Assembly (NCBI GenBank): GCA_963662465.1
Contig: OY759599.1
Span: 5,920,001 to 5,984,000, forward strand
Direction: 5' to 3'
Origin: Desulfatiglandales bacterium
GTDB taxonomy: Bacteria; Desulfobacterota; DSM-4660; Desulfatiglandales; Desulfatiglandaceae
Length of the DNA stretch: 64,000 nt
Within the stretch, counting starts at the first letter, position 1. Each line of letters starts with the position of its first letter. A model generated the notes under the pieces. The model was not told the DNA's origin and did no database searches. It was given only the letters and a program-made list of their open reading frames with translations. Of the stretch, positions 30,582-61,010 are shown piece after piece. The position numbers and the translations under genes are program-made.

Positions 30582-31001
30582 ATGATCAAAAAAAGAGTCC
30601 TTTTTCCCGAAAGAGTGCGTGTCATCAATGGAAGCTTCGGCTTTCTGGAGCATCGTTTTTTGAGAAACGGCTTTTGGGAGAGCCTGAATCATCATGAGCT
30701 GCTGCTCTACATTTTTCTGGTGTTGGTATCTGACAAAAACGGGCTCTCTTATTATGGTTACGACAGAATCTGCCGGATTTTAAAGGTGCATTTGGATCAA
30801 TATATCGATGCCCGCGATGGCTTGTTGGACAAGGATCTGATTGGGTTTGATGGCCGTCTGTTTCAGGTTCTTTCGCTTCCCAGACGTCCTGTGATTGTGA
30901 AACAGGTAAAGGAGATCCGGCAAGGAAATTGGGTCAGTCTTGGAGAAACCATAGAGGAAATCTTTCGGGAGACTGGGTATGGAATCCATCCGAACCGTTG
31001 A
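30582..31001 (+). CDS. Putative winged-helix DNA-binding protein (element A orf2)
   Basis: AGGAG RBS; LLLYIFLVLVSDKNGLSYYGYDRICRILK..ARDGLLDKDLIGF resembles replication-protein wHTH domains. Confidence 0.65.
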   Translation: MIKKRVLFPERVRVINGSFGFLEHRFLRNGFWESLNHHELLLYIFLVLVSDKNGLSYYGYDRICRILKVHLDQYIDARDGLLDKDLIGFDGRLFQVLSLPRRPVIVKQVKEIRQGNWVSLGETIEEIFRETGYGIHPNR

Positions 31002-31863
31002 TATTCATTTGCTGGAGTTGCGTTACGCTCATTGCCGGATAATGAATCACCAGGCTTTAAAGCGATTGAGGGATTCCATCGAAACTTACGGGCAGATCGT
31101 TCCGGCCCTGGCTATTGAAGAAAAAGACAAACTGATTCTGATTGATGGCTACCTGCGTGTTCGAGCGCTTTGTGCTTGTGGAAAGGACCGGATATGTGTC
31201 CAATTCTCAAAAGAAAACGAACAAAATGCCATGTTTTCGCTTTTAACCAAGGCCAATGAACGGCAATGGGAAGTCATTGAGCAGTCTGTTTTACTTCAGG
31301 AATTACATCGGCGTTTTGGGTGCAGCCTCTCCCATATTGCAACCCGAATAGGGCGCGACAAGAGTTTTGTAAAACGGCGGCTGGACCTGGTTGAAGCCCT
31401 GCCGGAAAATATTTTGAGAACCGTGATTGCAGGCTCACTTTCAACCTGGGCTGCCAGCCGTGTCATGGCGCCGTTGGCGCGCGCCAACGGTGAAGACGCA
31501 CAAAAACTGTTGGCCCACCTGGAAAAAGAACCTCTATCCACAAGGGAACTGGCCCGTTTCTACGCACATTACCAGAAAAGCAACCGGTCTGTTCGAGACC
31601 ACATGCTGGAAAATCCATCCCTTTTCATAAAAGTTCTCGAACAAAGAACCCAGTCTAAACAAGCCAAAGAAGTTCATGATGGACCGGAAGGCAAATGGTT
31701 CAAGGATATTGAAATGGCATATGCGGTTCTCAAACGTCTGGTGAAAACCGTTTCGCATGTCCATTACCCAAAAAGCGATCAGTTGAAGAAACAAACGCTC
31801 AAAACCTGGGTGAAAAAGATAGAAAAACAAGCACTGGAACTCAAGAAAGCGACCCAATTATGA
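30979..31863 (+). CDS. ParB/Srx N-terminal domain protein with HTH (element A orf3)
   Basis: LRDSIETYGQIVP..LIDGYLRVRAL ParB-like box; SLSHIATRIGRDKSFVKRRL HTH. Confidence 0.85.
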   Translation: MESIRTVDIHLLELRYAHCRIMNHQALKRLRDSIETYGQIVPALAIEEKDKLILIDGYLRVRALCACGKDRICVQFSKENEQNAMFSLLTKANERQWEVIEQSVLLQELHRRFGCSLSHIATRIGRDKSFVKRRLDLVEALPENILRTVIAGSLSTWAASRVMAPLARANGEDAQKLLAHLEKEPLSTRELARFYAHYQKSNRSVRDHMLENPSLFIKVLEQRTQSKQAKEVHDGPEGKWFKDIEMAYAVLKRLVKTVSHVHYPKSDQLKKQTLKTWVKKIEKQALELKKATQL

Positions 31864-33242
31864 TCCGACAATCCAAAAAAGATGCCATTGTGGAATTGAA
31901 AAAAACCGGCATGAGTTTGCGCGACATCGCCAAAACCCTGAAGGCCGGTCGCAATACCGTCACGAAGGTTTTAGATGATCATGACGAAGAGGCGGTACCC
32001 CAAAGGAACTCCCGGTATGAAGAACATGTCCCGTTGATCCGCGAGCTTTTCAAGGAATGTAAAGGAAATGCCGTGCGAGTAGCCGAGGAACTGGAAAGCC
32101 GCCAACAGATCAAAATCCCTTATCAGAGTCTGACCTGGATTATGAGAAAGTACGAGATCCGGGAACGTAAAAAAAGACGGGCGGGCCAATACCATTTTAA
32201 ACCCGGTCAGGAGATGCAGCATGATACGTCACCCCATCTGGTTGTCATTAATGGGAAAAAAATGTCGACCCAGTGCGCGTCCCTGACCCTGGCCTTTTGC
32301 CGAAGGATTTTTATTCAGTATTACCCCTGTTTTACCCGGTTTGAGTGCAAGGTTTTCCTAAAAAAAGCATTCGAGTTTATGGACGGGGTGTGTTCCCGGT
32401 GCATGGTTGACAACACCAATGTTATTGTGGCCGGCGGCACCGGGCCTGATGCATTGATTGCGCCTGAAATGAAATACTTCGGCGATATGTATGGAACCCG
32501 GTTTGAGGCCCATGCTGTAGGAGACGCCAATCGAAGTGCCCGTGTGGAAAGGCCTTTTCATTTTGTGGAAAACAATTTTCTTCCCGGTAGAACATTTGTT
32601 AGCTGGCAGGATTTGAACCGGCAGGCAATCGACTGGTGCCGGAATACAAGCGATAAAAAGTTTAAACGGGCTTTAGGGATGACGCCGGATGAGGCCTATG
32701 TCATTGAAAAGCCATATCTCATTGATTTACCGGCATACCAGCCGCCAGTCTATGTGGCAGAACACAGGGTAGCCGATGTTCAGGGATATGTGCACTTGGA
32801 CACCAACCGCTATTCAGTCCCTGAAGCGCTGATTGGGAACTCCCTGGAAGTACAGAAACATTGGCTCAAGGTCATCGTTTACGACAAAAACACAAAAGTG
32901 GCGGAACATGACCGCATACTGGATAAACGCAACACCCGAACAACCCTGCCCGGTCACCATGTTCCCATTCGAAGAAAAAAAGATCCCCGAATCCCTTCAA
33001 AAGAAGAACAGCTGTTGACGGGAGAGGATGCCATCCTGGATGAGTATGTGGCTGAACTGAAGAAAAGAAGTCACGGTCGCGGTGTGGTCAAGTTACGTCG
33101 GTTGCTTCATCTGAAACGCACTTATCCCGGGGAACCTTTTTTGAAAGCCATAACACAGGCGCTTAAATATGGACTTTTTGATTTGTCGCGTCTGGAAAAC
33201 ATTATTCTCGATTATATCGCGGGAGACTTTTTTGATCTATGA
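31860..33242 (+). CDS. istA: IS21-family transposase
   Basis: N-terminal HTH; DDE triad MQHDTS / MVDNT / ARVER; NRYSVP; ATGA overlap with istB. Confidence 0.93.
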   Translation: MIRQSKKDAIVELKKTGMSLRDIAKTLKAGRNTVTKVLDDHDEEAVPQRNSRYEEHVPLIRELFKECKGNAVRVAEELESRQQIKIPYQSLTWIMRKYEIRERKKRRAGQYHFKPGQEMQHDTSPHLVVINGKKMSTQCASLTLAFCRRIFIQYYPCFTRFECKVFLKKAFEFMDGVCSRCMVDNTNVIVAGGTGPDALIAPEMKYFGDMYGTRFEAHAVGDANRSARVERPFHFVENNFLPGRTFVSWQDLNRQAIDWCRNTSDKKFKRALGMTPDEAYVIEKPYLIDLPAYQPPVYVAEHRVADVQGYVHLDTNRYSVPEALIGNSLEVQKHWLKVIVYDKNTKVAEHDRILDKRNTRTTLPGHHVPIRRKKDPRIPSKEEQLLTGEDAILDEYVAELKKRSHGRGVVKLRRLLHLKRTYPGEPFLKAITQALKYGLFDLSRLENIILDYIAGDFFDL

Positions 33243-33958
33243 AAAAGAAAATTGAACAGTTACTCATTGATTTGAAGTTTAAAGGCATGCTGAAGGCTCT
33301 CGAAGAACAGTTGGCTTCGGCTGAAAAGAACGGTTTTTCCATTCACGAGGTCATCTACAATCTCCTGGCTGAGGAATTACGTTTCCGGCAGGAGCGCAGC
33401 ATGATCTATCGGGTCCAGATTGCAAAGCTTCCATGGGAATGGACCCTCAACTCCTTTCCGTTTGATCTTCAGCCGGGAATACAGAAGAGCCGGATCATGA
33501 CGTTGTCCGGCCTTGACTTTATCAGCCGAAGAGAAAACATCGTGTTCCATGGAAAAACCGGCGTCGGCAAAACGGGATTGGCCGTGGGGATCCTTCGTCA
33601 AGCCATTATTGCCGGGTACCGGGGGCGTTTTTATAATGTTCAGGATTTGCTGGATCAGCTCTATGCGTCTTTGGCAGATCGGTCCACCCCGAAACTCCTC
33701 AATGCCCTTTGCAGATATGACCTGCTTCTGCTCGATGAACTGGGATACCTGACCCTCAAAAAAGAGCAGATGAACGCCTTTTTTAAACTCATGAAAGATC
33801 GCTATGAAGCCGGTCGGTCCACAATTATTACGACCAATCTTCAACCTGAACAATGGTATTCGCTGCTTGAACCAAAGGACATGGTCGATGCCTTGCTGGA
33901 TCGTCTCAACCATCGCTGCATCAACATTCATATTGATGGTCCTTCCCTCAGAAAATGA
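33239..33958 (+). CDS. istB: IS21-family AAA+ helper ATPase
   Basis: GKTGVGKT, LLLDELGY, STIITTN, ALLDRL and GPSLR motifs. Confidence 0.95.
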   Translation: MKKKIEQLLIDLKFKGMLKALEEQLASAEKNGFSIHEVIYNLLAEELRFRQERSMIYRVQIAKLPWEWTLNSFPFDLQPGIQKSRIMTLSGLDFISRRENIVFHGKTGVGKTGLAVGILRQAIIAGYRGRFYNVQDLLDQLYASLADRSTPKLLNALCRYDLLLLDELGYLTLKKEQMNAFFKLMKDRYEAGRSTIITTNLQPEQWYSLLEPKDMVDALLDRLNHRCINIHIDGPSLRK

Positions 33959-34056
33959 GATGTTCGCCAAAGGGCCGGTTTTGAGGTCTGAATATCACCG
34001 GTCTGTTTGAATCTCGTTACACGAATATCAGAAATTACCTTGTCTTGGAGCTTGAA

Positions 34057-34254
34057 ATGAGAGGTGGAAAACGGGTAGGCGCCGGCCGAAGAAAGAAACC
34101 GGAACATTTGAGACGTGAACTGCTCACCATTCGTCTCCCCAAATGGATGATTCTACAGCTGAAAAAAAACGGGGAAATTGGATATTTGATTGAGGATCAA
34201 TTGGCGAAGGGAGGCCTCCTGAATTTACCGGACGACTATGACATAGACAAATAG
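34057..34254 (+). CDS. Small AT-hook/RHH-like DNA-binding protein (element A orf6)
   Basis: GGAG RBS; MRGGKRVGAGRRKK followed by LLTIRLPKWMI; homologue in element B. Confidence 0.75.
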   Translation: MRGGKRVGAGRRKKPEHLRRELLTIRLPKWMILQLKKNGEIGYLIEDQLAKGGLLNLPDDYDIDK

Positions 34255-35127: not shown

Positions 35128-35970
35128 ATGGACGAGATAGAAAGGTTCATTGAGCTGCCGGCAGACGACAAAAACCGACATATTCGGGCCCTGGGAATAG
35201 ATTTGGGTGCCACGAATTCAACTGTTTCAGAGGTGGTTTGGGGTCCTGGAAAACCCCCTTTGTGCAATGTCCTCGAATTAAAACAACCCACCCAGGCCGG
35301 TGAATATACAAGCCCCTTGGTTCCTTCGGTTCTTGTTGAACTCCCAGATAAAGAAGTCTGGATTGGTGAAGGCGCCAAACGTTTGCGTGCGTTCTTACAG
35401 AAAGCAAACCTGTTCCATGAGAAAAACCTGTTTTATGAAACCAAGAGCGACATGGGGCTTCGGAAAACATATTTTCGCGCGCCTGAACGCTTTAACCATG
35501 CCTCTAAAATTGCGGGCGCTATCCTTACCTTTCTAAAAGAGAGCGCAGAGAGCGCTTCCAACAGCAGCTACAACCATATTTCGGTCACGGTTCCCGCATC
35601 GTTCCAGTTAAATCAGCGACAAGATACTTTACTGGCCTGCCAATACGCAGGGCTGGAGTTACAAGATGATGATTTGTTGGATGAGCCGACAGCCGCTCTT
35701 ATCGATTACATCATCATCAAAGGTAATGAAAGCGTGGTTCGTTCAGGCGAAACGAGCCAATGTGTTGTCTTCGATTTTGGTGGAGGCACATGTGATGTAT
35801 CGGTCGTGGAAATTACAGGTGATCTGAACAGCTGAAAAATCATGATGAGTGAGCTGTCCGTATCCCGTTACCATCGACTCGGTGGCGGGGACATCGATGT
35901 TGCCATTGTCCATGAAATTCTGATTCCGAGCCTTTTAAAAGAGAATAATTTCTCGCCTCTCACTCCATAA
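35128..35970 (+). pseudogene. Truncated Hsp70-like (actin-fold ATPase) gene
   Basis: LGIDLGATNS, VTVPASF, DEPTAA, FDFGGGTCDVS; in-frame TGA at 35833; the frame continues through LGGGDID and stops at 35970. Confidence 0.8.
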
Positions 35971-36157
35971 TAGGATTTATCCATGAGGCGGAAAAGAACG
36001 GACATTTGACGCTGCAACACACTTACGATTTCAATCAAAAAAGCGCGGAAATGCCCCAGAGTCAGGATTCGGAAGATGAGTTTTCTTTATTGTAAGTAAA
36101 TTAAAACTGTTCTACTTAACACCAGGAGAATCAATTCACGCAAACATTTCATTGATA

Positions 36158-36637
36158 ATGGAAATTCAAGAACAGATACTGACAAACATTCAGGATGCTA
36201 AGCATCTCTACCAGAAGCTGATTCTTCTGGTCGGCAAATCCGGTTCCGGTAAGACGGGAATTCTCAAAAAATTTTCCAGCGAGTTTGCTGTCCCCATGAT
36301 CAATGTGAATCTGGAAATGTCTTCCCGTCTTCTGGATATACCCTTGGGGAAGCGAGCATCTAACTTATCCAGGCTGTTTTCAAGCCTCTTTAGCGATACC
36401 GGGAGCGATATGGTGCTCCTGGACAACATGGAGATTCTTTTTGATAAATCTCTTCAGCAAAACCCCCTGTCTCTCCTTCAGAACAATGCAAAGAACCGGG
36501 TCGTAATCGCTGCATGGAATGGAGCCATAGAGAACAGGCGCTTAACCTACGCAAGGCCGGAACACCATGAATTTCAGGCCTACCCGATCGAAGAAGTGGG
36601 TATCACAATCGAACTCAACCCATCGCCGGATGAATAA
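36158..36637 (+). CDS. brxF: BREX type 3 P-loop protein
   Basis: ~160 aa; LVGKSGSGKT, VLLDNMEILFD..L..NPL..L, LTYA.P.H.E; first gene ahead of brxC-pglXI-helicase-pglZ. Confidence 0.85.
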   Translation: MEIQEQILTNIQDAKHLYQKLILLVGKSGSGKTGILKKFSSEFAVPMINVNLEMSSRLLDIPLGKRASNLSRLFSSLFSDTGSDMVLLDNMEILFDKSLQQNPLSLLQNNAKNRVVIAAWNGAIENRRLTYARPEHHEFQAYPIEEVGITIELNPSPDE

Positions 36638-37385
36638 TCCGATCCTGGCTGAAACGGAGGCAACATCATGTATTACCATGAACTCATTCAGTTCGACCCC
36701 ATTGAAACTACCGTCCAGCTCATTGAATCGGATGATAAGGCAAAGGCCCAAGAATTGGTTTCAACGTTTGTTATCTCCGATGACATGGCCCTGAACATTA
36801 CGAAGATCGCTTTTGAACAGCTTCAATTTGATCACCCCATGGATAACAAGGGGCTTTTAATCGTTGGAAACTATGGTACTGGAAAATCCCATCTGATGTC
36901 CGTCATCTCCAGCATTGCGGAATATGAGGACATGGTCGAAAACGTCAAGAATGAATTGGTCGGAAAAGAGGCCCGGAAAATTGCAGGCAAATTCAAGGTG
37001 ATTCGGATTGAAATCGGGTCCAGCACCATGGATTTCAGGGAGATGATCTGTTCTGAGTTAAGCGATGGTCTTGCGAAATGGGGTATTGAATACCGCTTTC
37101 CGAATAGAGATAAAATCACTAATCACAAACAGGCTTTTGAAGAAATGATGGCGGTGTTTCAATCCGTTTATCCTGAAAAAGGTTTACTGCTGGTGCTTGA
37201 CGAATTGCTTGACTATCTCCGTCCCCGGGCGGCCACCCAAAATCCCCCACCTGTGGCCACTTGAAAATCCCCCACCTAAAGAGGTTCAAAATGTAGATTT
37301 TTGATCTTCGGCTCAATTCACAAAATGGTGACAGGACGTTATACCATCTCCCAATGCAATTTAATTGAATTGGGAGGAAGAAAGG

Positions 37386-40070
37386 ATGAACGTTTTGAAG
37401 CCGGACAAGAAATCTACCATCATTACCCTACTTAAAAATGGCGTTGGTCAGCGTGAAGTACATCGTAAGACCAATATTGACAGGAAAACGATCCGAAAAT
37501 ACGCAAAAGAAAGTGGCTTTTTACCCGAAGATTCCGACTTAAATTCAAGATCCCCCACCCTGGCCACCGGGGCTGATTGCATCATCAGTGAAAATCCCCC
37601 ACCCCGGCCACCGGTAAACAGCACATTCAAGGGAGAAAAACGGGCGATTCCACTCCATGCCAGATCAGCATGTGAGCCTCACCGAGAATGGATTGAAAAG
37701 CAGGTGAAGCTCGGGAGGAATGCCGTAGCGATTTACCAAGATTTGGTCGAGCGATTTGCCTTTACCCACAAATACAACAGCGTAAAGCGGTTTGTAAGGG
37801 GACTGAGAAAAGAGGACCCCAAGCAATTCGATCGATTGGAGTTTTTACCAGGGGAAGAGGCTCAGGTAGACTATGGCACGGGAGCCAAAACGCTTCATTC
37901 GACAGGGAAATACCGTAAAACTCGTCTCTTTATAATGACGTTGAAATACTCCAGGCGCTCATTCCGGAAAGTAGTTTGGCAATCAAGCAAAGAAACATGG
38001 GCAAAACTTCATGAGGAGTCATTTCGATATTTCGGAGGTTGCCCCCAATATGTGGTTCTGGACAATTTGAAAGAGGGCGTCATCAAACCGGATCTTTACG
38101 AACCTGAATTGAACACCGTCTATGCGGCCATGCTGGAGCATTACGGGGTTGTTGCAGATCCGGCAAGAGTTAGAGACCCAAACCGGAAAGGGACTGTTGA
38201 AAATGCCGTACAGCATACCCAAGACACAGCTTTAAAAGGTCGCACATTTGAATCGATTGAACGACAGAATGAATGGCTTATGCACTGGGAGGAACAATGG
38301 GCTGCTCAGCGGATACACGGGAGAACCAAGCGACAGGTTGAAGAAATGTTTCAAGAAGAAAAACCGTACCTTAAACAACTTCCCTTAACTGCATTCAGCT
38401 ATTTCAGCCAAGAAATCCGTACGGTCTGGGATGACGGCGCCATTCAGGTGGGGAAATCCTATTATTCAGCCTTGCCGGCGCCCCTTTATACAAAGGTTAT
38501 TGTCAGGATTTATGACAGAGAGATTGAGATTATCAATCCTGTAACAATGGAGATTTTCCGCAGGCACGCCAAGAACAGCAGGCCGGGATCTGTCAATATA
38601 CCGCCGGAAGATAGGATTTTTAATCCTTCACGTCAAACAACGTATCTCTTTGCCAAAGCAGAGAGCATTGGTCCCGCAACTTTAAAATTATGCAAGGTCT
38701 TGTTTGAGGAAGAAGGCAGAACCGGTCAAAGACGAATACAGGGGATTGTCAACCTGGTCCGACATTATGAGGCCCGTTACGTGGAACAGGCCTGCATCAA
38801 AGCCAATAATGTGGGGCTGCGCAATTACAAATCCATCCGCAACCTTGTCAAAACGTTAGCCGAAAAAAACCAGGAAGAAAAGGATTCTGAGGGGCTGATT
38901 CAGGAACATAAATTAATACGCCCTCCGGAAGATTATGCTGCATTCTGGGAGCAGCACGCCGCACAGACACCGGTTTCGGAGGAAGGAGCAAACCGTTTTG
39001 TCATGCCCAAAGAGCAACTACCCGCAGTTTGGAAAAATGCAAGCTGGGAGAGAGTGATTGATGTTTTTGGCCTGGAAGTTGATGGAAACCGCCGCTGTAA
39101 GGCCAACGAGACATGGATCAAATCGCCTTTTACAGGCGAAAAAACTGCTTCGCTGCATTTGAACCTGACGGAGAATATCTTCAAGGATTTCAGCAGTGGC
39201 CTGGGGGCGAAAGTCGGTGTACTCAATTTCTGCCAGGATCTTTTAGCGCTGCGAGGCCAGGCAATGAATTGCTATGAAGTTGCCTCCTGGATGGTGGAAA
39301 ATGGAATTTCAAATTTGGATATACGTTCACGCGAGGTTAAAAACCATGTTCCTGAACTCAAAAAACCGAAAGAAAACAAACCGATTCAAGTGGATTTAAG
39401 GCGTTTTGTACAGCCGCAACATCCAGAATTAAAACATCGACAGGTTTCAGAGGCGACATGTCGCTATCTGGGATGTGGTTTTCTCCCGGAAAGGCCGAAT
39501 GGAAACAAACAGTCACCTCTCAATGGCCGGTTGGTGTTTCAAGTGCGGGGAATGTCCGGCGCTATACTGACACATGTCGGTCGTGCATTGACACTGCAGC
39601 AAGAAAAAACGAATGGGAAATACTGGAGCTTTCCGTTCTTCAAAAAACTGGAAATATACAACCAGGACAAACTGTTATCAGATGCTTCAGCAAAGGATCA
39701 AGTTCAGCGGCTTGGCTTGGTGCTGGTAGAAGGTTTTTTTGATGTGGCAGTTTTGGTCGAATCGGGTTGTTTGAACGTCGGAGCACTGATGGGGTCGCAC
39801 ATGACCGAACAACAGGCAGCCCGAATAAAGTTAATCAGCTCACACATTGAGATTCCCAAAATTACCGTTTTTTTGGACAGGGATGAAGCTGGGAGGATTG
39901 GCGCACAAAAAGCAGTTACTGTGCTGCGGAAAAATGGGTTTTCAGCCGAGGCCTTTGACTGGAACCAGACCCTTGGGTCGTCATTTGTGAAAATCCCAAT
40001 GGCCGTTATGGATCCAGGCGATATGTCGTTAAGGCAGCTAAAGTGGTTGAGAAAAAAGGGAAACATTTGA
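37386..40070 (+). CDS. istA: IstA transposase fused to a DnaG-type primase (ZBD-like, catalytic core and TOPRIM)
   Basis: AQVDYG / VVLDNLK / KGTVEN DDE triad; then SPFTGEKTAS..FKDFSSG, GRLVFQV..VGRAL, LVEGFFDV, ALMG, FLDRDEAG and DPGDM in one frame. Confidence 0.9.
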   Translation: MNVLKPDKKSTIITLLKNGVGQREVHRKTNIDRKTIRKYAKESGFLPEDSDLNSRSPTLATGADCIISENPPPRPPVNSTFKGEKRAIPLHARSACEPHREWIEKQVKLGRNAVAIYQDLVERFAFTHKYNSVKRFVRGLRKEDPKQFDRLEFLPGEEAQVDYGTGAKTLHSTGKYRKTRLFIMTLKYSRRSFRKVVWQSSKETWAKLHEESFRYFGGCPQYVVLDNLKEGVIKPDLYEPELNTVYAAMLEHYGVVADPARVRDPNRKGTVENAVQHTQDTALKGRTFESIERQNEWLMHWEEQWAAQRIHGRTKRQVEEMFQEEKPYLKQLPLTAFSYFSQEIRTVWDDGAIQVGKSYYSALPAPLYTKVIVRIYDREIEIINPVTMEIFRRHAKNSRPGSVNIPPEDRIFNPSRQTTYLFAKAESIGPATLKLCKVLFEEEGRTGQRRIQGIVNLVRHYEARYVEQACIKANNVGLRNYKSIRNLVKTLAEKNQEEKDSEGLIQEHKLIRPPEDYAAFWEQHAAQTPVSEEGANRFVMPKEQLPAVWKNASWERVIDVFGLEVDGNRRCKANETWIKSPFTGEKTASLHLNLTENIFKDFSSGLGAKVGVLNFCQDLLALRGQAMNCYEVASWMVENGISNLDIRSREVKNHVPELKKPKENKPIQVDLRRFVQPQHPELKHRQVSEATCRYLGCGFLPERPNGNKQSPLNGRLVFQVRGMSGAILTHVGRALTLQQEKTNGKYWSFPFFKKLEIYNQDKLLSDASAKDQVQRLGLVLVEGFFDVAVLVESGCLNVGALMGSHMTEQQAARIKLISSHIEIPKITVFLDRDEAGRIGAQKAVTVLRKNGFSAEAFDWNQTLGSSFVKIPMAVMDPGDMSLRQLKWLRKKGNI

Positions 40071-40127
40071 TTTCCATCGCCACGTTCTCGGTGGCGCGGA
40101 AATTTGTTTAACCTAAACGGCCATCCG

Positions 40128-40603
40128 AAGGAATCGGGCTTATGTATAAGCGAATATGGTCGGACTTTTTGAATCTCGTTACACGATAATCATAGGGCTT
40201 GATTGTTTTGGAGGTGAAAATGGGAGGCGGAAAACGTATGGGAGCCAGTCGAAAAAAGAAATCAGATCATTTGAGACGTGAACTGCTGACAATTCGATTG
40301 CCGAAGTGGATGATTTCACAGCTCAAAAACAAATGTGAAATTGGCTATTTGATCGAGGATCAATTAAGGAATCGGGCTTATGTATAGGCGAATATGGTCG
40401 GACTTTTTGAATCTCGTTACACGATAATCATAGGGCTTGATTGTTTTGGAGGTGAAAATGCGAGGCGGAAAACGTACGGGAGCCGGTCGAAAAAAGAAAT
40501 CAGATCATTTGAGACGTGAACTGCTGACAATTCGATTGCCGAAGTGGATGATTTCACAGCTCAAAAACAAATGTGAAATTGGCTATTTGATCGAGGATCA
40601 ATT
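40128..40603. repeat. 238-bp tandem duplication of the small-gene cassette
   Basis: AAGGAATCGGGCTTATGTATA at 40128 and 40366; about four substitutions between the copies. Confidence 0.95.
40220..40387 (+). pseudogene. C-terminally truncated duplicate of the small AT-hook/RHH-like gene
   Basis: MGGGKRMGASRKKK..EDQLRNRAYV; the GAGR motif is mutated and the tail is replaced. Confidence 0.7.
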
Positions 40604-40655
40604 GAGGAAGATAGATTTTTTGGATATCCCGGATGACTATGACATTGATAACTGA
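40458..40655 (+). CDS. Small AT-hook/RHH-like DNA-binding protein (element B)
   Basis: GGAGG RBS; 50/65 aa identical to 34057-34254 by manual alignment. Confidence 0.78.
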   Translation: MRGGKRTGAGRKKKSDHLRRELLTIRLPKWMISQLKNKCEIGYLIEDQLRKIDFLDIPDDYDIDN

Positions 40656-40678
40656 AATCGAGAAAGGAGAAACTGAAT

Positions 40679-41452
40679 ATGCCGATGTCAATGCAGGAAA
40701 TAGAGAAAAGTCTAGGAACGCTACGTTTAAGCGGTATGCGAGCAACATTAGAAACCCGAGTGATACAGGCAAATCAAGGAGAATCTTCTTTCCTGGAAGT
40801 CTTTTCATGCCTGCTTCAGGATGAGTTAGATTACAGGCGGTCGTGCCTGATAGAACGTAGATTTAATGCTTCCGGTCTTCGTGAGAGAAAAACATTGACT
40901 GAGTTTGATTGGGGCTTTAATCCAAGACTTCCAAAAAAGGAAATTTTTGAACTGGTGACCATCAAATTTATACACAACGGTGAAGACGCACTCCTGATCG
41001 GTTCTCCCGGGACTGGGAAAAGCCATATCGTTAAAACAATTGCTCATGCTGCAACACAGGCATGCCATCAGGTTGTTTATCGTGAGGCCCATACTTTCTT
41101 TGAAGATGTCTTCGAAGCAGCCCAAACAGGGAAGACAAAAAAAATAACAAAGCTTTTTTCAGAAGCAGACTTGCTAATAATAGATGATCTTTTCCTGAGA
41201 AAAAGGGTCCCTGAACATGCGGCAGATGATCTTCTTGATATCATACTGAATCGTTATTCCAAAAGAAAAAGTACACTCATAACATCAAACCGTCCGGTGG
41301 AGGACTGGGGTAAACTGCTCAGAGACAATGCCGCATCCTCTGCGATCCTTGACAGGTTGCTCCACCGAGGCCATTTGCTCAAATTTGAAGGAAAAAGCTA
41401 CAGGCTAAAGGAGGCTGCAGAAAAACTTGCCATAGGGAAGAAAAAAGAATAA
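40679..41452 (+). CDS. istB: IS21-family helper ATPase
   Basis: GSPGTGKSH, LLIIDDL, TLITSNR, AILDRLLH and GKSYRL motifs. Confidence 0.95.
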   Translation: MPMSMQEIEKSLGTLRLSGMRATLETRVIQANQGESSFLEVFSCLLQDELDYRRSCLIERRFNASGLRERKTLTEFDWGFNPRLPKKEIFELVTIKFIHNGEDALLIGSPGTGKSHIVKTIAHAATQACHQVVYREAHTFFEDVFEAAQTGKTKKITKLFSEADLLIIDDLFLRKRVPEHAADDLLDIILNRYSKRKSTLITSNRPVEDWGKLLRDNAASSAILDRLLHRGHLLKFEGKSYRLKEAAEKLAIGKKKE

Positions 41453-44400
41453 AGTGTAACCGTTCTGTCGCTGAAGATCTTTCCAATGCCACGGTCAAGA
41501 TCCTACATGGCCACCTTCACAGGTGGGGGATTTTGGGGTGGCCACAAGTGGGGGATTTTGAAGTGGCCATCCGGGCCGTCAAAGGAAAATGCAGGAATTG
41601 GTCCGGGACCTTGGGTTTTTGAGGGAAATCGGGGAGGTCTGCAAGAACCTTCGCTTTCGTTTCATGGCAGGCGTCCAGGAAGCCATCTTTGATACAGATT
41701 CGTTCGAATTTGTTTCTGGCAGCATCAAAAGGGTTAAAGATAGATTTGAACAGGTATTGATTGCCAAGAAGGACGTGAAGTTTGTGGTCTCTCAAAGACT
41801 CCTTCAAAAGACGCCCGAGCAAAAAGCCCGGATTGCAGCCTATTTGGCTCCTTTTTCGAAATTTTATGAGCAGATGAATGAAAGGATGGATGATTATGTG
41901 GAGCTTTTCCCCATTCATCCTGAATATATTGATACATTTGAAAAAATAAGAGCGGTCGAAAAGCGAGAAGTGTTGAGGACCTTTTCCCGTGCCATGAAAG
42001 AGGTCTTAAACGATCCGGTGCCGACCGATTATCCAGGCGTCATTGCTTACGATGGTTATTGGAAACAATTGAAGGAAAACGCTGCCTTTCGATCCATACC
42101 GGATATTCGAACGGTCATGGAATGCAGCGATGTTCTGGAATCAAAAGTGAATCAGTCGTTCAGCAGACCGCCCTATAAAAAGATGGCATTAAGGATTATT
42201 CAGGGCCTTTCCATAAACAGGCTGGCTACAGGGAATATTTATCAGCCGATCGGGCTGACGGCCAGATCGCTCAGGGATGAACTATGCCTCTATCAACCCG
42301 GCATAGAAGAAATGGGGGGTGAACCGAATGAGGATCTTCAAACCCTTGTGGAAACTGTTCTGCGCGAGATTATCAAGACTGTAAACGGACAATTCATTTC
42401 CATGGCCCAGGATTCCGGACAATACTATTTGGATCTCAAAAAGGACGTAGACTATGACGCCTTGATCGAAAAGCGCGCAGAACTTCTCGAAAATGATAAG
42501 CTTGACATGGCTTATTTCGATGCTCTCTCCAGGATACTTGAACGATCCGACATCTATCATCCGGGAACCCACCTGGCATGGGAATATGAGCTCCAATGGT
42601 TGAATCGGAAGTCGGCCCGGATCGGCTATATGTTTTTCGGTACGCCCAATGAACGATCTACCGCCCAGCCGCCCAGGGATTTTTATCTCTATTTCACTCA
42701 GATTTTTGAAGCCCCGTCGTTTAAAGATGAACTTCGATCGGATGAGGCGTTCATCAAATTGACCCATCTGGATGATGAGATCAAGAAACTCATCCGATAC
42801 TATGCTGCCGCTCAAGCACTGGGATCTACTTCTTCCGGCCAGTCGAAAACCATCTATCTCGAAAAAGCAAGCGGGTTTCTCAAGGAAATTGTTCAATGGC
42901 TCAGGAAGAATCTGTTGACGGCTTTAGAACTGAAATACCAGGGAAAATCAAAAGCCATGCTTGAATGGCTAAAAGGGCGTATGAGCCCCTCAGAAATGGA
43001 GCAGAGTACGGTCCGGGATCTGTTAAATACAGCTGCTTCCATTTGCCTTGCAGAATATTTCAAAGAACTGGCGCCCGAATATCCTTCATTTTCTATCAAG
43101 ATCACCGGCGACAACCGTCAGCAGGCAGCAGTGGATGCGCTCCGTGGTATTGGGGGTTCCACCAGGACCAAGCAGGGCACAGCCGTGTTGGATGCTCTTG
43201 AACTGTTTGATGGGGATAACATAGATCCACGGCATTCCAGGTACGCCTTGTTCATTCTGGATTTGTTGAGTAAAAAGGGGGCGGGCCAGGTTCTGAATCG
43301 TTCGGAGCTAATCCAGGATATAATGGGAGTTGAGTACCTGTTGCCGGAACGATTTCGACTGGAACCGGATTGGGTGGTGGCTATACTGGCAGCCCTGGTC
43401 TACGCGGGAGATCTCGTCCTTAATATTCCGGGAAAAGAATTCAGCGCCATCAATATTGCCGCCCTTTCCGCAACGCCTCTCCAGGATCTAATTGATTTCA
43501 AGCATGTCAAAAAGCCCAAAGGTGTGCCCACTGGACCATTGAAAGCACTATTTGAGCTTCTGGGCCTTGCGCCCGGACTTGCCATTGAAATTTCTCAAGG
43601 GAAAAGCGGGCCGGTGGAGCAGCTCCAGACCACCATCGCGGTTTTCGTGGAAAAACTTGTCATGGCCGTTCAGAAGATTCAAACGGGCATCCCATTCTGG
43701 GGGAAGAATCTTCTGTCGGATGATGAGGTCATCTCTTGCCGGAAAAAGATGGAGGAAACCAAGACGTTCCTTGAATCGATCCAGGCCTTCAATACGCCGG
43801 GCAAGATGACAAATTTCAAGTATTCTGAAATCGAAATCCGGAACCATGGTGGAGGGCTTGCCGTACTCAAAGAGGTCAATGCGTTGCAGGAAATCGTCGG
43901 GGATCTCGGAAGCCTCGCCTCCTATCTGGCTCAGGCTGAAGCATATCTTCCGGATACGGATTCATGGATCAGCAAAATGAAAACAACGCGTGATGCCATC
44001 CTTTCCAGCTTTTACGATCCGGAAAAACGCACCAAACCGGAATTCAGGCAGAAAACCCTTCAGCAATTAAATGAATTACAGCAAAGTTACATGGATACTT
44101 ACACATCCATGCACCAGAAAGCCAGGCTGGGTGTGAATGATGACAATCGGAAAAAGGCACTTTCAAGAGATGACAGACTCGAAAAGCTCAAAAAACTAGC
44201 CACCATCGGCACCATGCATGCCAGCCAGCTGGTGGATTTCCAGAACCGCCTGGCCAATCTTACGCCCTGTTACAGCTTTCTAAAAAAAGATCTGAATACC
44301 ACGCCCTTATGTCCTCATTGCACATTTAAACCCTCGCAAGAAAGTATTGTAGTTCCAGTCGACAATCGGATTTCAAAACTGGAAGATGATCTTGACAGGC

Positions 44401-44745
44401 TCTACGATGAATGGACCAACACCCTTCTAAACAACCTTGAGGATCCGATTACCCAGGAAAGAATTGACCTGCTAACACCTGAGATGAAAAATCATATTGA
44501 GGCGTTTCTGAAAACCAGAGTCCTGCCGGATCCGCTCAGCGATGAATTCATCCAGGCAATTCGTGAAGCACTGTCGGATCTCAAGAAAATTACCATAAAG
44601 GTTCCGGATCTGAAGGATGCTCTACTTGCGGGGGGCTCACCATTTAATCCTAATGAAATGAAAACCAGGCTGGATACCTATCTCAGCCGGCTTACCGCAG
44701 GGAAGGACCCCAGCAAGGTCAGAATTGTACTGGAGTAAAATTCGG

Positions 44746-57337: not shown

Positions 57338-57757
57338 ATGATCAAAAAAAGAGTCCTTTTTCCCGAAAGAGTGCGTGTCATCAATGGAAGCTTCGGCTTT
57401 CTGGAGCATCGTTTTTTGAGAAACGGCTTTTGGGAGAGCCTGAATCATCATGAGCTGCTGCTCTACATTTTTCTGGTGTTGGTATCTGACAAAAACGGGC
57501 TCTCTTATTATGGTTACGACAGAATCTGCCGGATTTTAAAGGTGCATTTGGATCAATATATCGATGCCCGCGATGGCTTGTTGGACAAGGATCTGATTGG
57601 GTTTGATGGCCGTCTGTTTCAGGTTCTTTCGCTTCCCAGACGTCCTGTGATTGTGAAACAGGTAAAGGAGATCCGGCAAGGAAATTGGGTCAGTCTTGGA
57701 GAAACCATAGAGGAAATCTTTCGGGAGACTGGGTATGGAATCCATCCGAACCGTTGA
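57338..57757 (+). CDS. wHTH-like orf2 of element A copy 2
   Basis: Same protein as 30582-31001. Confidence 0.65.
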   Translation: MIKKRVLFPERVRVINGSFGFLEHRFLRNGFWESLNHHELLLYIFLVLVSDKNGLSYYGYDRICRILKVHLDQYIDARDGLLDKDLIGFDGRLFQVLSLPRRPVIVKQVKEIRQGNWVSLGETIEEIFRETGYGIHPNR

Positions 57758-58619
57758 TATTCATTTGCTGGAGTTGCGTTACGCTCATTGCCGGATAATG
57801 AATCACCAGGCTTTAAAGCGATTGAGGGATTCCATCGAAACTTACGGGCAGATCGTTCCGGCCCTGGCTATTGAAGAAAAAGACAAACTGATTCTGATTG
57901 ATGGCTACCTGCGTGTTCGAGCGCTTTGTGCTTGTGGAAAGGACCGGATATGTGTCCAATTCTCAAAAGAAAACGAACAAAATGCCATGTTTTCGCTTTT
58001 AACCAAGGCCAATGAACGGCAATGGGAAGTCATTGAGCAGTCTGTTTTACTTCAGGAATTACATCGGCGTTTTGGGTGCAGCCTCTCCCATATTGCAACC
58101 CGAATAGGGCGCGACAAGAGTTTTGTAAAACGGCGGCTGGACCTGGTTGAAGCCCTGCCGGAAAATATTTTGAGAACCGTGATTGCAGGCTCACTTTCAA
58201 CCTGGGCTGCCAGCCGTGTCATGGCGCCGTTGGCGCGCGCCAACGGTGAAGACGCACAAAAACTGTTGGCCCACCTGGAAAAAGAACCTCTATCCACAAG
58301 GGAACTGGCCCGTTTCTACGCACATTACCAGAAAAGCAACCGGTCTGTTCGAGACCACATGCTGGAAAATCCATCCCTTTTCATAAAAGTTCTCGAACAA
58401 AGAACCCAGTCTAAACAAGCCAAAGAAGTTCATGATGGACCGGAAGGCAAATGGTTCAAGGATATTGAAATGGCATATGCGGTTCTCAAACGTCTGGTGA
58501 AAACCGTTTCGCATGTCCATTACCCAAAAAGCGATCAGTTGAAGAAACAAACGCTCAAAACCTGGGTGAAAAAGATAGAAAAACAAGCACTGGAACTCAA
58601 GAAAGCGACCCAATTATGA
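57735..58619 (+). CDS. ParB-like orf3 of element A copy 2
   Basis: Same protein as 30979-31863. Confidence 0.85.
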   Translation: MESIRTVDIHLLELRYAHCRIMNHQALKRLRDSIETYGQIVPALAIEEKDKLILIDGYLRVRALCACGKDRICVQFSKENEQNAMFSLLTKANERQWEVIEQSVLLQELHRRFGCSLSHIATRIGRDKSFVKRRLDLVEALPENILRTVIAGSLSTWAASRVMAPLARANGEDAQKLLAHLEKEPLSTRELARFYAHYQKSNRSVRDHMLENPSLFIKVLEQRTQSKQAKEVHDGPEGKWFKDIEMAYAVLKRLVKTVSHVHYPKSDQLKKQTLKTWVKKIEKQALELKKATQL

Positions 58620-59998
58620 TCCGACAATCCAAAAAAGATGCCATTGTGGAATTGAAAAAAACCGGCATGAGTTTGCGCGACATCGCCAAAACCCTGAAGG
58701 CCGGTCGCAATACCGTCACGAAGGTTTTAGATGATCATGACGAAGAGGCGGTACCCCAAAGGAACTCCCGGTATGAAGAACATGTCCCATTGATCCGCGA
58801 GCTTTTCAAGGAATGTAAAGGAAATGCCGTGCGAGTAGCCGAGGAACTGGAAAGCCGCCAACAGATCAAAATCCCTTATCAGAGTCTGACCTGGATTATG
58901 AGAAAGTACGAGATCCGGGAACGTAAAAAAAGACGGGCGGGCCAATACCATTTTAAACCCGGTCAGGAGATGCAGCATGATACGTCACCCCATCTGGTTG
59001 TCATTAATGGGAAAAAAATGTCGACCCAGTGCGCGTCCCTGACCCTGGCCTTTTGCCGAAGGATTTTTATTCAGTATTACCCCTGTTTTACCCGGTTTGA
59101 GTGCAAGGTTTTCCTAAAAAAAGCATTCGAGTTTATGGACGGGGTGTGTTCCCGGTGCATGGTTGACAACACCAATGTTATTGTGGCCGGCGGCACCGGG
59201 CCTGATGCATTGATTGCGCCTGAAATGAAATACTTCGGCGATATGTATGGAACCCGGTTTGAGGCCCATGCTGTAGGAGACGCCAATCGAAGTGCCCGTG
59301 TGGAAAGGCCTTTTCATTTTGTGGAAAACAATTTTCTTCCCGGTAGAACATTTGTTAGCTGGCAGGATTTGAACCGGCAGGCAATCGACTGGTGCCGGAA
59401 TACAAGCGATAAAAAGTTTAAACGGGCTTTAGGGATGACGCCGGATGAGGCCTATGTCATTGAAAAGCCATATCTCATTGATTTACCGGCATACCAGCCG
59501 CCAGTCTATGTGGCAGAACACAGGGTAGCCGATGTTCAGGGATATGTGCACTTGGACACCAACCGCTATTCAGTCCCTGAAGCGCTGATTGGGAACTCCC
59601 TGGAAGTACAGAAACATTGGCTCAAGGTCATCGTTTACGACAAAAACACAAAAGTGGCGGAACATGACCGCATACTGGATAAACGCAACACCCGAACAAC
59701 CCTGCCCGGTCACCATGTTCCCATTCGAAGAAAAAAAGATCCCCGAATCCCTTCAAAAGAAGAACAGCTGTTGACGGGAGAGGATGCCATCCTGGATGAG
59801 TATGTGGCTGAACTGAAGAAAAGAAGTCACGGTCGCGGTGTGGTCAAGTTACGTCGGTTGCTTCATCTGAAACGCACTTATCCCGGGGAACCTTTTTTGA
59901 AAGCCATAACACAGGCGCTTAAATATGGACTTTTTGATTTGTCGCGTCTGGAAAACATTATTCTCGATTATATCGCGGGAGACTTTTTTGATCTATGA
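58616..59998 (+). CDS. istA: IS21 transposase, copy 2
   Basis: Same protein as 31860-33242. Confidence 0.93.
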   Translation: MIRQSKKDAIVELKKTGMSLRDIAKTLKAGRNTVTKVLDDHDEEAVPQRNSRYEEHVPLIRELFKECKGNAVRVAEELESRQQIKIPYQSLTWIMRKYEIRERKKRRAGQYHFKPGQEMQHDTSPHLVVINGKKMSTQCASLTLAFCRRIFIQYYPCFTRFECKVFLKKAFEFMDGVCSRCMVDNTNVIVAGGTGPDALIAPEMKYFGDMYGTRFEAHAVGDANRSARVERPFHFVENNFLPGRTFVSWQDLNRQAIDWCRNTSDKKFKRALGMTPDEAYVIEKPYLIDLPAYQPPVYVAEHRVADVQGYVHLDTNRYSVPEALIGNSLEVQKHWLKVIVYDKNTKVAEHDRILDKRNTRTTLPGHHVPIRRKKDPRIPSKEEQLLTGEDAILDEYVAELKKRSHGRGVVKLRRLLHLKRTYPGEPFLKAITQALKYGLFDLSRLENIILDYIAGDFFDL

Positions 59999-60714
59999 AA
60001 AAGAAAATTGAACAGTTACTCATTGATTTGAAGTTTAAAGGCATGCTGAAGGCTCTCGAAGAACAGTTGGCTTCGGCTGAAAAGAACGGTTTTTCCATTC
60101 ACGAGGTCATCTACAATCTCCTGGCTGAGGAATTACGTTTCCGGCAGGAGCGCAGCATGATCTATCGGGTCCAGATTGCAAAGCTTCCATGGGAATGGAC
60201 CCTCAACTCCTTTCCGTTTGATCTTCAGCCGGGAATACAGAAGAGCCGGATCATGACGTTGTCCGGCCTTGACTTTATCAGCCGAAGAGAAAACATCGTG
60301 TTCCATGGAAAAACCGGCGTCGGCAAAACGGGATTGGCCGTGGGGATCCTTCGTCAAGCCATTATTGCCGGGTACCGGGGGCGTTTTTATAATGTTCAGG
60401 ATTTGCTGGATCAGCTCTATGCGTCTTTGGCAGATCGGTCCACCCCGAAACTCCTCAATGCCCTTTGCAGATATGACCTGCTTCTGCTCGATGAACTGGG
60501 ATACCTGACCCTCAAAAAAGAGCAGATGAACGCCTTTTTTAAACTCATGAAAGATCGCTATGAAGCCGGTCGGTCCACAATTATTACGACCAATCTTCAA
60601 CCTGAACAATGGTATTCGCTGCTTGAACCAAAGGACATGGTCGATGCCTTGCTGGATCGTCCCAACCATCGCTGCATCAACATTCATATTGATGGTCCTT
60701 CCCTCAGAAAATGA
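59995..60714 (+). CDS. istB: IS21 helper ATPase, copy 2 (DRL to DRP substitution)
   Basis: Same as 33239-33958 except CTC to CCC at 60661-63. Confidence 0.93.
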   Translation: MKKKIEQLLIDLKFKGMLKALEEQLASAEKNGFSIHEVIYNLLAEELRFRQERSMIYRVQIAKLPWEWTLNSFPFDLQPGIQKSRIMTLSGLDFISRRENIVFHGKTGVGKTGLAVGILRQAIIAGYRGRFYNVQDLLDQLYASLADRSTPKLLNALCRYDLLLLDELGYLTLKKEQMNAFFKLMKDRYEAGRSTIITTNLQPEQWYSLLEPKDMVDALLDRPNHRCINIHIDGPSLRK

Positions 60715-60812
60715 GATGTTCGCCAAAGGGCCGGTTTTGAGGTCTGAATATCACCGGTCTGTTTGAATCTCGTTACACGAATATCAGAAATTACCTTGTC
60801 TTGGAGCTTGAA

Positions 60813-61010
60813 ATGAGAGGTGGAAAACGGGTAGGCGCCGGCCGAAGAAAGAAACCGGAACATTTGAGACGTGAACTGCTCACCATTCGTCTCCCCAAAT
60901 GGATGATTCTACAGCTGAAAAAAAACGGGGAAATTGGATATTTGATTGAGGATCAATTGGCGAAGGGAGGCCTCCTGAATTTACCGGACGACTATGACAT
61001 AGACAAATAG
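60813..61010 (+). CDS. Small AT-hook/RHH-like protein, copy 2
   Basis: Same protein as 34057-34254. Confidence 0.75.
   Translation: MRGGKRVGAGRRKKPEHLRRELLTIRLPKWMILQLKKNGEIGYLIEDQLAKGGLLNLPDDYDIDK

Follow-up and report, generated by a model that had tools for sequence, protein, structure and literature searches.

A 4.35-kb insertion sequence (IS) of the IS21 family, located in the genome of a Desulfatiglandales bacterium, encodes an IstA transposase that is joined in a single reading frame to what is, by profile and predicted fold, a DnaG-type primase. The element occupies 37224-41575 of the stretch of DNA analyzed here, a 64,000-nucleotide (nt) window of contig OY759599.1 (positions 5,920,001 to 5,984,000). 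All coordinates are positions in this window and residue numbers are those of the 894-amino acid (aa) fusion protein. Our data indicate that the primase half is very probably a functional, selected DnaG-type module of an active IS. That this module would be an active primase used in transposition is an evenly balanced proposition. A more specific reading, to which we give a rough probability of 0.35, is that of a self-priming IS, in which the tethered primase would be catalytically required and would prime the second strand of the copied-out element at the transpososome without the host DnaB-DnaG primosome.

The fusion is encoded by a single open frame on the plus strand (37365..40070), which the listing of open reading frames (ORFs) gives as 901 aa if read from a TTG codon. 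Because the ATG at 37386 is preceded 8 nt upstream by GGAGG and the homologues start with MNVLKP, we take the 894-aa protein beginning at this ATG to be the product. Its N-terminal part is an IstA protein. The NCBIfam model NF033546 ("IS21 family transposase") matches residues 14-333 with 261.6 bits (cut-off 160), the isolated N-terminal half matches Pfam rve and Mu-transpos_C_2, and residues D162, D226 and E272 are in register with D124, D187 and E233 of the solved IS5376 IstA (8q4d/8b4h, expectation value (E) 4e-24), which PMC10122671 names as the DDE motif. A residue census of the 120 cluster representatives listed, which extend down to 59% identity, revealed zero substitutions in this triad wherever the position is present. 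Unfused IstA proteins of relatives cover residues 1 to ~526 over the whole length of those proteins. Thus, the transposase part is complete and the primase is a C-terminal addition. An earlier note on this DNA, made from its letters and ORFs, had described an uninterrupted ORF of ~894 aa whose first ~520 aa form an IstA with a full DDE triad, and both statements hold.

Residues ~545-894 are, as judged from profiles and structure prediction, a DnaG-type primase module composed of a zinc-less domain with the zinc-binding fold and an RNA-polymerase/TOPRIM core. The Pfam families Toprim_2 and Toprim_4 exceed their cut-offs on residues 778-858, TIGR01391 (dnaG) matches residues 698-861 (E 5e-21), and the isolated primase half as query gives weak matches to DNAG_N and Zn_ribbon_DnaG. 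A sequence search of solved structures identified the DnaG polymerase domains 4e2k (2.5e-7) and 2au3 (3e-7). An AlphaFold2 model of residues 526-894, obtained with a 50-row alignment, has a mean predicted local distance difference test score (pLDDT) of 91.7, and its best Foldseek match is 2au3, the zinc-binding and polymerase domains of the Aquifex primase (E 8e-16). The next matches are DnaG polymerase domains of five other species (7e-12 to 2e-8; 5guj, 4e2k, 3b39 and 1dd9 among them), with the T4 gp61 and T7 gp4 primases and the isolated zinc-binding domain 1d0q further down. The family profile matches 2au3 with an E of 3e-41, in one stretch over the zinc-binding domain and in another over the polymerase domain; for 1d0q, the E is 6e-15. 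Profile searches and structure prediction had been named as checks in the earlier note; the profiles support the assignment of rve in the first half, and both support that of TOPRIM and the DnaG-type fold in the second.

The features expected of the DnaG-type superfamily, namely the polymerase fold (N-terminal subdomain plus TOPRIM) and the conserved acidic residues, are present. The polymerase/TOPRIM part harbors the basic residues R715, R721, R733, K745 and K753 and the acidic residues E782/D786 (EGFFD), D831/D833 (DRD) and D876/D879 (DPGD). In the case of the four-ligand CHC2 zinc ribbon, the fold is there but the ligands are not, the four positions being S/T/D/S across the fusion family. 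No helicase-binding domain was found in the primase half by Pfam searches, and the ORF stops 15 residues past D879 of the DPGD motif. The module also lies outside the chromosomal DnaG orthologues, as the TIGR01391 match scores 74.9 bits against an equivalog cut-off of 283.6 and a C-terminal DnaB-binding domain was not found with Pfam. These results agree with the earlier note, which had listed the motifs SPFTGEKTAS..FKDFSSG, GRLVFQV, VGRAL, KY, EGFFD, DRDEAG and DPGD, all of them present in the translation, and had pointed to a Cys-less zinc-binding-like domain and to a missing helicase-binding tail.

The two halves are connected by a linker that is poorly conserved and modeled with low confidence. 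The pLDDT falls below 50 at residues 1-11 of the primase-half model and at residues 497-538 of a full-length AlphaFold2 model, itself of low confidence (41-sequence alignment, pLDDT 61, predicted template modeling score 0.27) and too poor to place the primase relative to IstA. Within the linker-coding DNA, at 38978-39005, the sequence GGAGGAAGGAG ends 14 nt 5' of an in-frame ATG at 39003 (residue 540), the point where standalone relatives begin, and a Met occupies this position in 28 of 41 aligned family members. This ATG is a possible internal start, a candidate for yielding a free primase.

Selection was assessed on 35 intact fusion genes, those of the window and of 34 further loci (L058, a spurious frame, and L013, in which the start pattern was missed, were left out). 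Ratios of nonsynonymous to synonymous substitution rates (dN/dS) were obtained by the Nei-Gojobori method for the 240 of 595 pairs with 0.03<dS<1.2. The median dN/dS is 0.127 for IstA and 0.199 for the whole primase half, within which the zinc-binding-like domain has the lowest value (0.135), followed by the polymerase/TOPRIM part (0.186) and the stretch between the domains (0.256); the linker, at 0.272, has the highest value of the ORF. By this measure, the primase half is under purifying selection. The residue census gives the same picture. E782, D786, D831 and D833 are each found in 118 of the 120 listed representatives, the exceptions being an R at E782 and gaps at the other three positions, while D876 and D879 are present in 117 and 115, respectively. 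R715 and R721 are found in all 120, R733 in 119, and position 745 is K or R in 119. The dN/dS values together with this residue conservation argue that the primase half is maintained and that its zinc-less state is fixed and does not reflect decay, a possibility that the earlier note had raised.

The fusion is not a singleton. A protein search seeded with the primase half returned 566 proteins at E <= 0.001 out of 4653 candidates. Among the 120 relatives listed, 95 are at least 845 aa long and the shorter ones are mostly on 2-4-kb contigs; three relatives carry the NCBI name "IS21 family transposase" with the primase unmentioned. On contigs from one genome per species, the best 80 of 512 IstA relatives were examined, of which 16 have a full primase, 3 a partial primase and 61 none. 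The partial primases are those of L012 (gene cut by the contig end), L020 (most of the primase deleted, with ~60 residues kept) and L079 (internal deletion). By record titles, the carriers of the fusion are mostly Desulfobacterota-type metagenome-assembled genomes. In a sample of 401 genomes of the host phylum, the fusion occurs in 2 (this genome included) and standalone relatives in 2 more; in the remaining 77 matching genomes the match is the ~600-aa host DnaG. The present host likewise retains its own 632-aa DnaG (C1:5165172). Five other genomes harbor 1-3 copies each, with open frames of 886-959 aa, and one of the three copies in G401 has a TAA within the matched stretch.

Independent reads support the continuity of the ORF. 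A 2933-nt short-read contig of sequencing run X1 matches the window at every position of 37247-40179, although the two may share a source sample, and a 1076-nt contig of run X4, from another organism, bridges 38355-39430. A stop or frameshift between the halves, which the earlier note had considered as a way in which the fusion could prove false, is not seen. In two metatranscriptome libraries, contigs cover parts of both halves of related variants (in X8, for instance, 38708-38998, 39039-39225 and 39370-39837). We do not take these as evidence of transcription, since DNA can be present in libraries of this kind and the whole junction region is not covered by any of the RNA contigs listed.

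The element is a member of the IS21 family by every defining feature: it has IstA with its DDE triad, IstB, multi-repeat ends and a short target duplication. It is also recently active. The host genome, a single 8.16-Mb contig, contains the element three times, with 100% identity among the copies over 4346 nt, as well as three end fragments. Together with the intact copies in the five other genomes, this bears out the earlier proposal that the element moved with the fusion. The bases CCCGGG (left) and TCCGGG (right) are common to all three genomic copies, and on this ground the ends were placed at 37224 and 41575, directly outside of which lies a perfect 5-bp CCGTC duplication. The inverted repeats and perfect target duplication of the earlier note thus stand in substance, the duplication being as perfect as claimed while the positions of the ends needed correction. 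The CCGGG beside each end was considered as a target duplication and rejected, as it belongs to the inverted repeat, is present in all copies and would break the frame of the interrupted host gene, which encodes a DUF6079 protein. The duplication is TCCAC at one of the other two genomic copies and a 6-of-7 match at the other, and those of relatives are CTGAA (L056) and AATAA (L069). Relatives end in the identical 13 bases CCCGGATGGCCAC, and the inverted repeat is perfect in L019, L101 and L102.

The outermost bases are CCCGG.../...CCGGG in all copies. The termini are therefore not 5'-TG...CA-3', and a CA is found 6 nt inside the right end; PMC10122671 describes the 3' CA as a signature. Terminal TG...CA is typical of many IS21 members and we do not treat it as defining. 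The ~25-nt repeats at the ends are presumably IstA-binding sites. Two further copies of the terminal-repeat motif are located within the istA coding region, the second of which (37591-37614) encodes, in the ORF frame, ENPPPRPP (residues 69-76), and in L019, L069 and L078 the motif likewise lies within the transposase ORF, close to its 5' end. Because the internal copy lies within the reading frame, this candidate internal transposase-binding site may double as coding sequence.

The region between the fusion ORF and istB harbors a duplicated small ORF (40199-40387, 62 aa; 40437-40655, 72 aa), each within a 238-bp unit. The small ORF has a weak BrnA-antitoxin match and reads, from its sequence, as ribbon-helix-helix-like. 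All three copies in this genome have the unit twice. The 97%-identical L011 and L056 have it once, as does a contig of run X4 from which exactly 238 nt are missing, and fusion elements that are more distant lack it. By this distribution, the duplicated small ORF is a lineage-specific accessory. The coordinates of all features are collected in Table 1.

Table 1 Features of the IstA-primase element and its insertion site in the 64,000-nt window
Feature	Positions	Strand	Basis
DUF6079 host gene, split by the element	36668..44738	+	Pfam profile positions 1-189 before and 190-1238 after the element
Left target-site duplication, CCGTC	37219..37223	.	Flanks of three genomic copies
Left inverted repeat: terminus CCCGGGCGGCCAC, then two ~25-nt direct repeats (GGCCAC-N-AAAATCCCCCACC)	37224..37277	+	Repeat search, copy comparison
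Fusion ORF: IstA transposase, linker and predicted DnaG-type primase, 894 aa plus stop	37386..40070	+	ORF listing, translation, profile matches
IstA part, residues 1-525: helix-turn-helix region, DDE core, beta-barrel, helical C-terminal region	37386..38960	+	NF033546, rve, Mu-transpos_C_2, IS5376 alignment
Two further terminal-repeat motif copies (AAAATCCCCCACC..GGCCACCGG) within the istA coding region	37545..37614	+	Repeat search, translation
Linker, residues ~526-560	38961..39065	+	Highest dN/dS of the ORF, low model confidence in part
Predicted zinc-less domain with zinc-binding-domain fold, residues ~561-640; ligand positions S580, T583, D601, S604	39066..39305	+	Profile, Foldseek, ligand census
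Predicted primase RNA-polymerase domain with TOPRIM, residues ~660-894	39363..40067	+	Pfam, NCBIfam, Foldseek, profile, residue conservation
Tandem duplication of a 238-bp unit, 98% alike, small ORF in each	40128..40603	+	Repeat search, ORF listing
IstB AAA+ helper ATPase, 257 aa	40679..41452	+	PF01695 E 7e-51; NF038214 212.5 bits, cut-off 200
Right inverted repeat: two repeats, terminus ...GTGGCCATCCGGG	41518..41575	-	Repeat search, copy comparison
Right target-site duplication, CCGTC	41576..41580	.	Flanks of three genomic copies

The primase half has relatives beyond the fusion family. When 1.84 billion representatives were searched exhaustively without a profile, 2744 matches were obtained. 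The best of them include many standalone proteins, ~340-400 aa in length, that align over the entire query with 24-59% identity. In the 50-row alignment, which consists of the window's primase and 49 relatives, the zinc site of the relatives is CHCC in 5 and CPC(H/C) in 3, and the rest have one or zero cysteines. From these comparisons, the module is part of a broader clade of mostly zinc-less DnaG-like proteins. Searches of PLSDB plasmids and INPHARED phages found no close relatives, the 6 and 14 records obtained being at most 31% identical. Two standalone zinc-less primases could be placed in their genetic context. One (L124:3492-4616) lies on a plasmid-like, mobilizable contig that also encodes a relaxase, ParA, toxin-antitoxin pairs and a replication initiator; the other (L152:6223-7242, G279) is present as three diverged copies in a repeated region of one genome and adjoins a type IV secretion pilin gene.

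A metagenome contig revealed a second arrangement of the primase with IS21 genes. L116:465-4107 is a divergent three-gene IS21 element, IstA-IstB-primase, within 46-nt inverted repeats. Its IstA (499 aa, NF033546 167.8 bits) and IstB (265 aa, 235.8 bits) are 24% and 26% identical, respectively, to those of the window, while its primase is a separate 381-aa protein that is 54% identical to the window's primase half, has a start that overlaps the IstB stop, and keeps EGFFD, DRD and DAGD. In a primase tree of 64 sequences, from which 16 near-duplicate loci were left out, 22 fusion primases form one clade with L116 and P0122 (Shimodaira-Hasegawa-like approximate likelihood ratio test support 100), and the other standalone proteins are outside. 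That the same primase clade occurs with IS21 genes in two arrangements, with very divergent IstA and IstB, argues for a working partnership and against an accident. In the IstA tree (95 sequences), the primase-bearing rows are in two groups of 36 and 7, and an unfused Syntrophus/Smithella clade is the weakly supported sister of the larger. A constrained tree uniting all 43 primase-bearing IstA rows has a log-likelihood 18.85 higher and is not rejected by the approximately unbiased test (p-AU 0.73). A single capture of the predicted primase by one IS21 lineage would therefore fit the data.

How might such a primase serve transposition? Cellular DnaG is recruited by the replicative helicase through the DnaG C-terminal domain. 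In the fusion, a covalent tie to the transposase, and not to the helicase, would bring the primase to its template, and in an element of the L116 type co-expression with IstA and IstB would do so. Because the primase lacks the helicase-recruitment domain and is joined to the transposase through a linker of poor conservation and low model confidence, priming at the transpososome appears to be the most likely role. A preprint (bioRxiv 10.1101/2023.06.07.543989) places IS21 among the families with circular intermediates, in which the 3'-OH from first-strand cleavage primes copying of the element. It is plausible that the element transposes replicatively. In that step, copying from the 3'-OH, whether of a circle or of tandem ends, would give rise to a single-stranded or displaced strand on which the primase would lay RNA primers. 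The complementary strand would need its own primer, and with it the copied element could become double-stranded without waiting for the host primosome. We infer "self-priming" from the fold, the residue conservation, the absent helicase-binding domain and the recurrent IS21 link of the primase clade, and likewise infer that the primase domain is catalytically active. IstB is a paralogue of the helicase loader DnaC and, as a bolder extension, IstB and the primase might form a transposon-encoded mini-primosome.

Several observations weigh against self-priming. In the 120 representatives listed, cysteine does not occur at a single zinc-ligand position, and positions 580 and 601 are replaced in every one. 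Template recognition and initiation by characterized DnaG and T7 primases depend on their zinc-binding domain, and loss of the metal site could therefore mean that priming is changed or lost. The element does not encode a helicase, so the source of a single-stranded DNA template is unexplained. L020 and L079 keep IstA and IstB despite the loss of primase sequence, and the nearest unfused relatives, Syntrophus and Smithella elements with IstA proteins 64-67% identical, are multi-copy without a primase. Finally, the pairs used for dN/dS share branches and are not independent of each other.

These points bear on the alternatives as well. A primase-like module might be kept for a non-catalytic job, whereby it would bind single-stranded DNA, forks or a part of the host replisome and steer target choice, timing or transpososome assembly, its acidic residues being retained for metal-dependent DNA binding and not for synthesis. 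It would fit this explanation that, within the primase half, the strongest constraint falls on the zinc-binding-like domain (dN/dS 0.135) though all of its metal ligands are gone, and that PMC11208146 describes the role of the IstA C-terminal region as undefined. However, all catalytic classes (E, DxD, D..D and the basic R/K residues) are near-invariant down to 59% identity, beyond the usual demands of DNA binding, and the separate L116 primase also keeps its catalytic residues, and we regard a non-catalytic role as rather unlikely, though far from negligible. The TOPRIM domain might instead act as a nuclease on the non-transferred (5') strand and so convert a replicative pathway to cut-and-paste, as TnsA does for Tn7. 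DDE transposases of this group are known to cleave 3' ends only, TOPRIM domains are nucleases in other proteins, and the RNase M5 TOPRIM is among the weak fold matches (6z2b, E 0.027). Yet the whole primase architecture is kept: besides TOPRIM, the zinc-binding fold is retained, as is the N-terminal polymerase subdomain together with its basic residues. The strong fold matches are all primases, nuclease-type TOPRIM domains being at least 6 orders of magnitude worse; we therefore view a nuclease as improbable.

Replication of the excised circle, which the earlier note had put forward, is a long shot. According to this idea, the primase would let the IS circle replicate for a time as a plasmid-like replicon, in line with the contexts of the standalone relatives that could be placed, a mobilizable plasmid for L124 and the neighborhood of a type IV secretion pilin gene for L152. 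The element, however, is without an initiator, origin-like iterons or a helicase gene, and its other genes are only istB and the small ORF, which most relatives lack, so that the proposal found no support. There is, lastly, a negligible chance that the fusion is an artefact of assembly or that its primase half is a passenger, neutral or in decay. The derivatives with partial primase loss (L020, L079) would be expected of a passenger, but a dN/dS of 0.20, 35 independent intact ORFs, near-invariant catalytic residues and the X1 and X4 contigs across the junction all speak against it. Self-priming at the transpososome remains the reading that we prefer.

The element is inserted in a P-loop gene of the DUF6079 family (1238 profile positions), which has a weak BrxC/BrxD match. 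When the element and one CCGTC are taken out, the DUF6079 frame is rejoined and reads ...DYLRQRKMQELV.... The gene lies downstream of an ORF for a small AAA ATPase (36152-36637) and a 235-aa HSP70-like fragment (35128-35835), and the region 35128-44738 may represent a disrupted locus of the defence type. The window also contains two copies (30582-34254 and 57338-61010) of a different IS21-like element, which has, as judged from a 260-nt piece, ~30 copies in the genome. It encodes an HTH_36 protein (139 aa), a ParB-HTH protein (294 aa), an IstA-like protein (Mu-transpos_C_2, 460 aa), IstB (239 aa) and a small ORF (69 aa). The small ORF of the fusion element recurs at the end of this element (34045-34254) with 76% DNA identity, which suggests that the two elements may have exchanged modules.

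We found no description of an IstA-primase fusion or of a primase gene inside an IS21 element in a full-text literature search, with most subscription journals, ISfinder and TnPedia outside its reach. As far as the literature was searched, the added enzyme is found in no described IS21 member, consistent with the statement of the earlier note that no such IS21 subgroup has been described. To our knowledge, the prevailing view is that DDE insertion sequences rely on the host for all of their DNA synthesis. The fusion bears on the question of how copy-out is primed and completed in IS21 and similar families. If the self-priming reading is true, it would be the first sign that small IS bring their own priming enzyme, fused to the transposase here and as a separate gene in a second IS21 lineage. 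As a single polypeptide, the fusion provides a simple experimental handle on whether priming belongs to transposition, and the widespread zinc-less DnaG-like clade bears on what the zinc-binding domain really does.

Comparison with known systems underscores what is shared and what is new. The element resembles canonical IS21 and IS5376 in its DDE triad, domain order, IstB directly downstream, multi-repeat inverted ends and short target duplication. By contrast, it adds a 370-residue, predicted DnaG-type primase in frame at the IstA C-terminus, has CCCGG.../...CCGGG as its outermost bases, the usual CA being located 6 nt in from the right end, and carries an extra small ORF before istB. With bacterial DnaG (2au3, 4e2k, 1dd9), the module shares the zinc-binding and RNA-polymerase/TOPRIM fold and the EGxxD, DxD and D..D motifs, but it has neither the zinc ligands nor the C-terminal helicase-binding domain and is fused to a transposase. 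The standalone DnaG-like primases (L124, L152/P0160, P0131 and others) share with it the two domains, the lack of a helicase-binding tail and a mostly degenerate zinc site; these, however, are encoded by separate genes, show no IS21 link in the two contexts seen and are outside the IS21-associated clade.

Two further comparisons concern function. The IS-excision enhancer IEE, as described in bioRxiv 10.1101/2023.06.07.543989, is a PrimPol-helicase that acts on copy-out-paste-in IS, and as such is also a primase-type enzyme tied to the replicative step of IS transposition. Unlike the window's DnaG-type primase, which is part of the transposase, IEE is according to that text a member of the archaeo-eukaryotic primase superfamily; its gene lies outside the IS, and its action leads to excision and loss of the IS. 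The self-synthesizing transposons, too, are mobile elements with a DNA-synthesis enzyme of their own. These, the casposons and Polintons, are large elements with family-B DNA polymerases and other integrases, whereas the element described here is a 4.35-kb DDE IS that carries a primase only.

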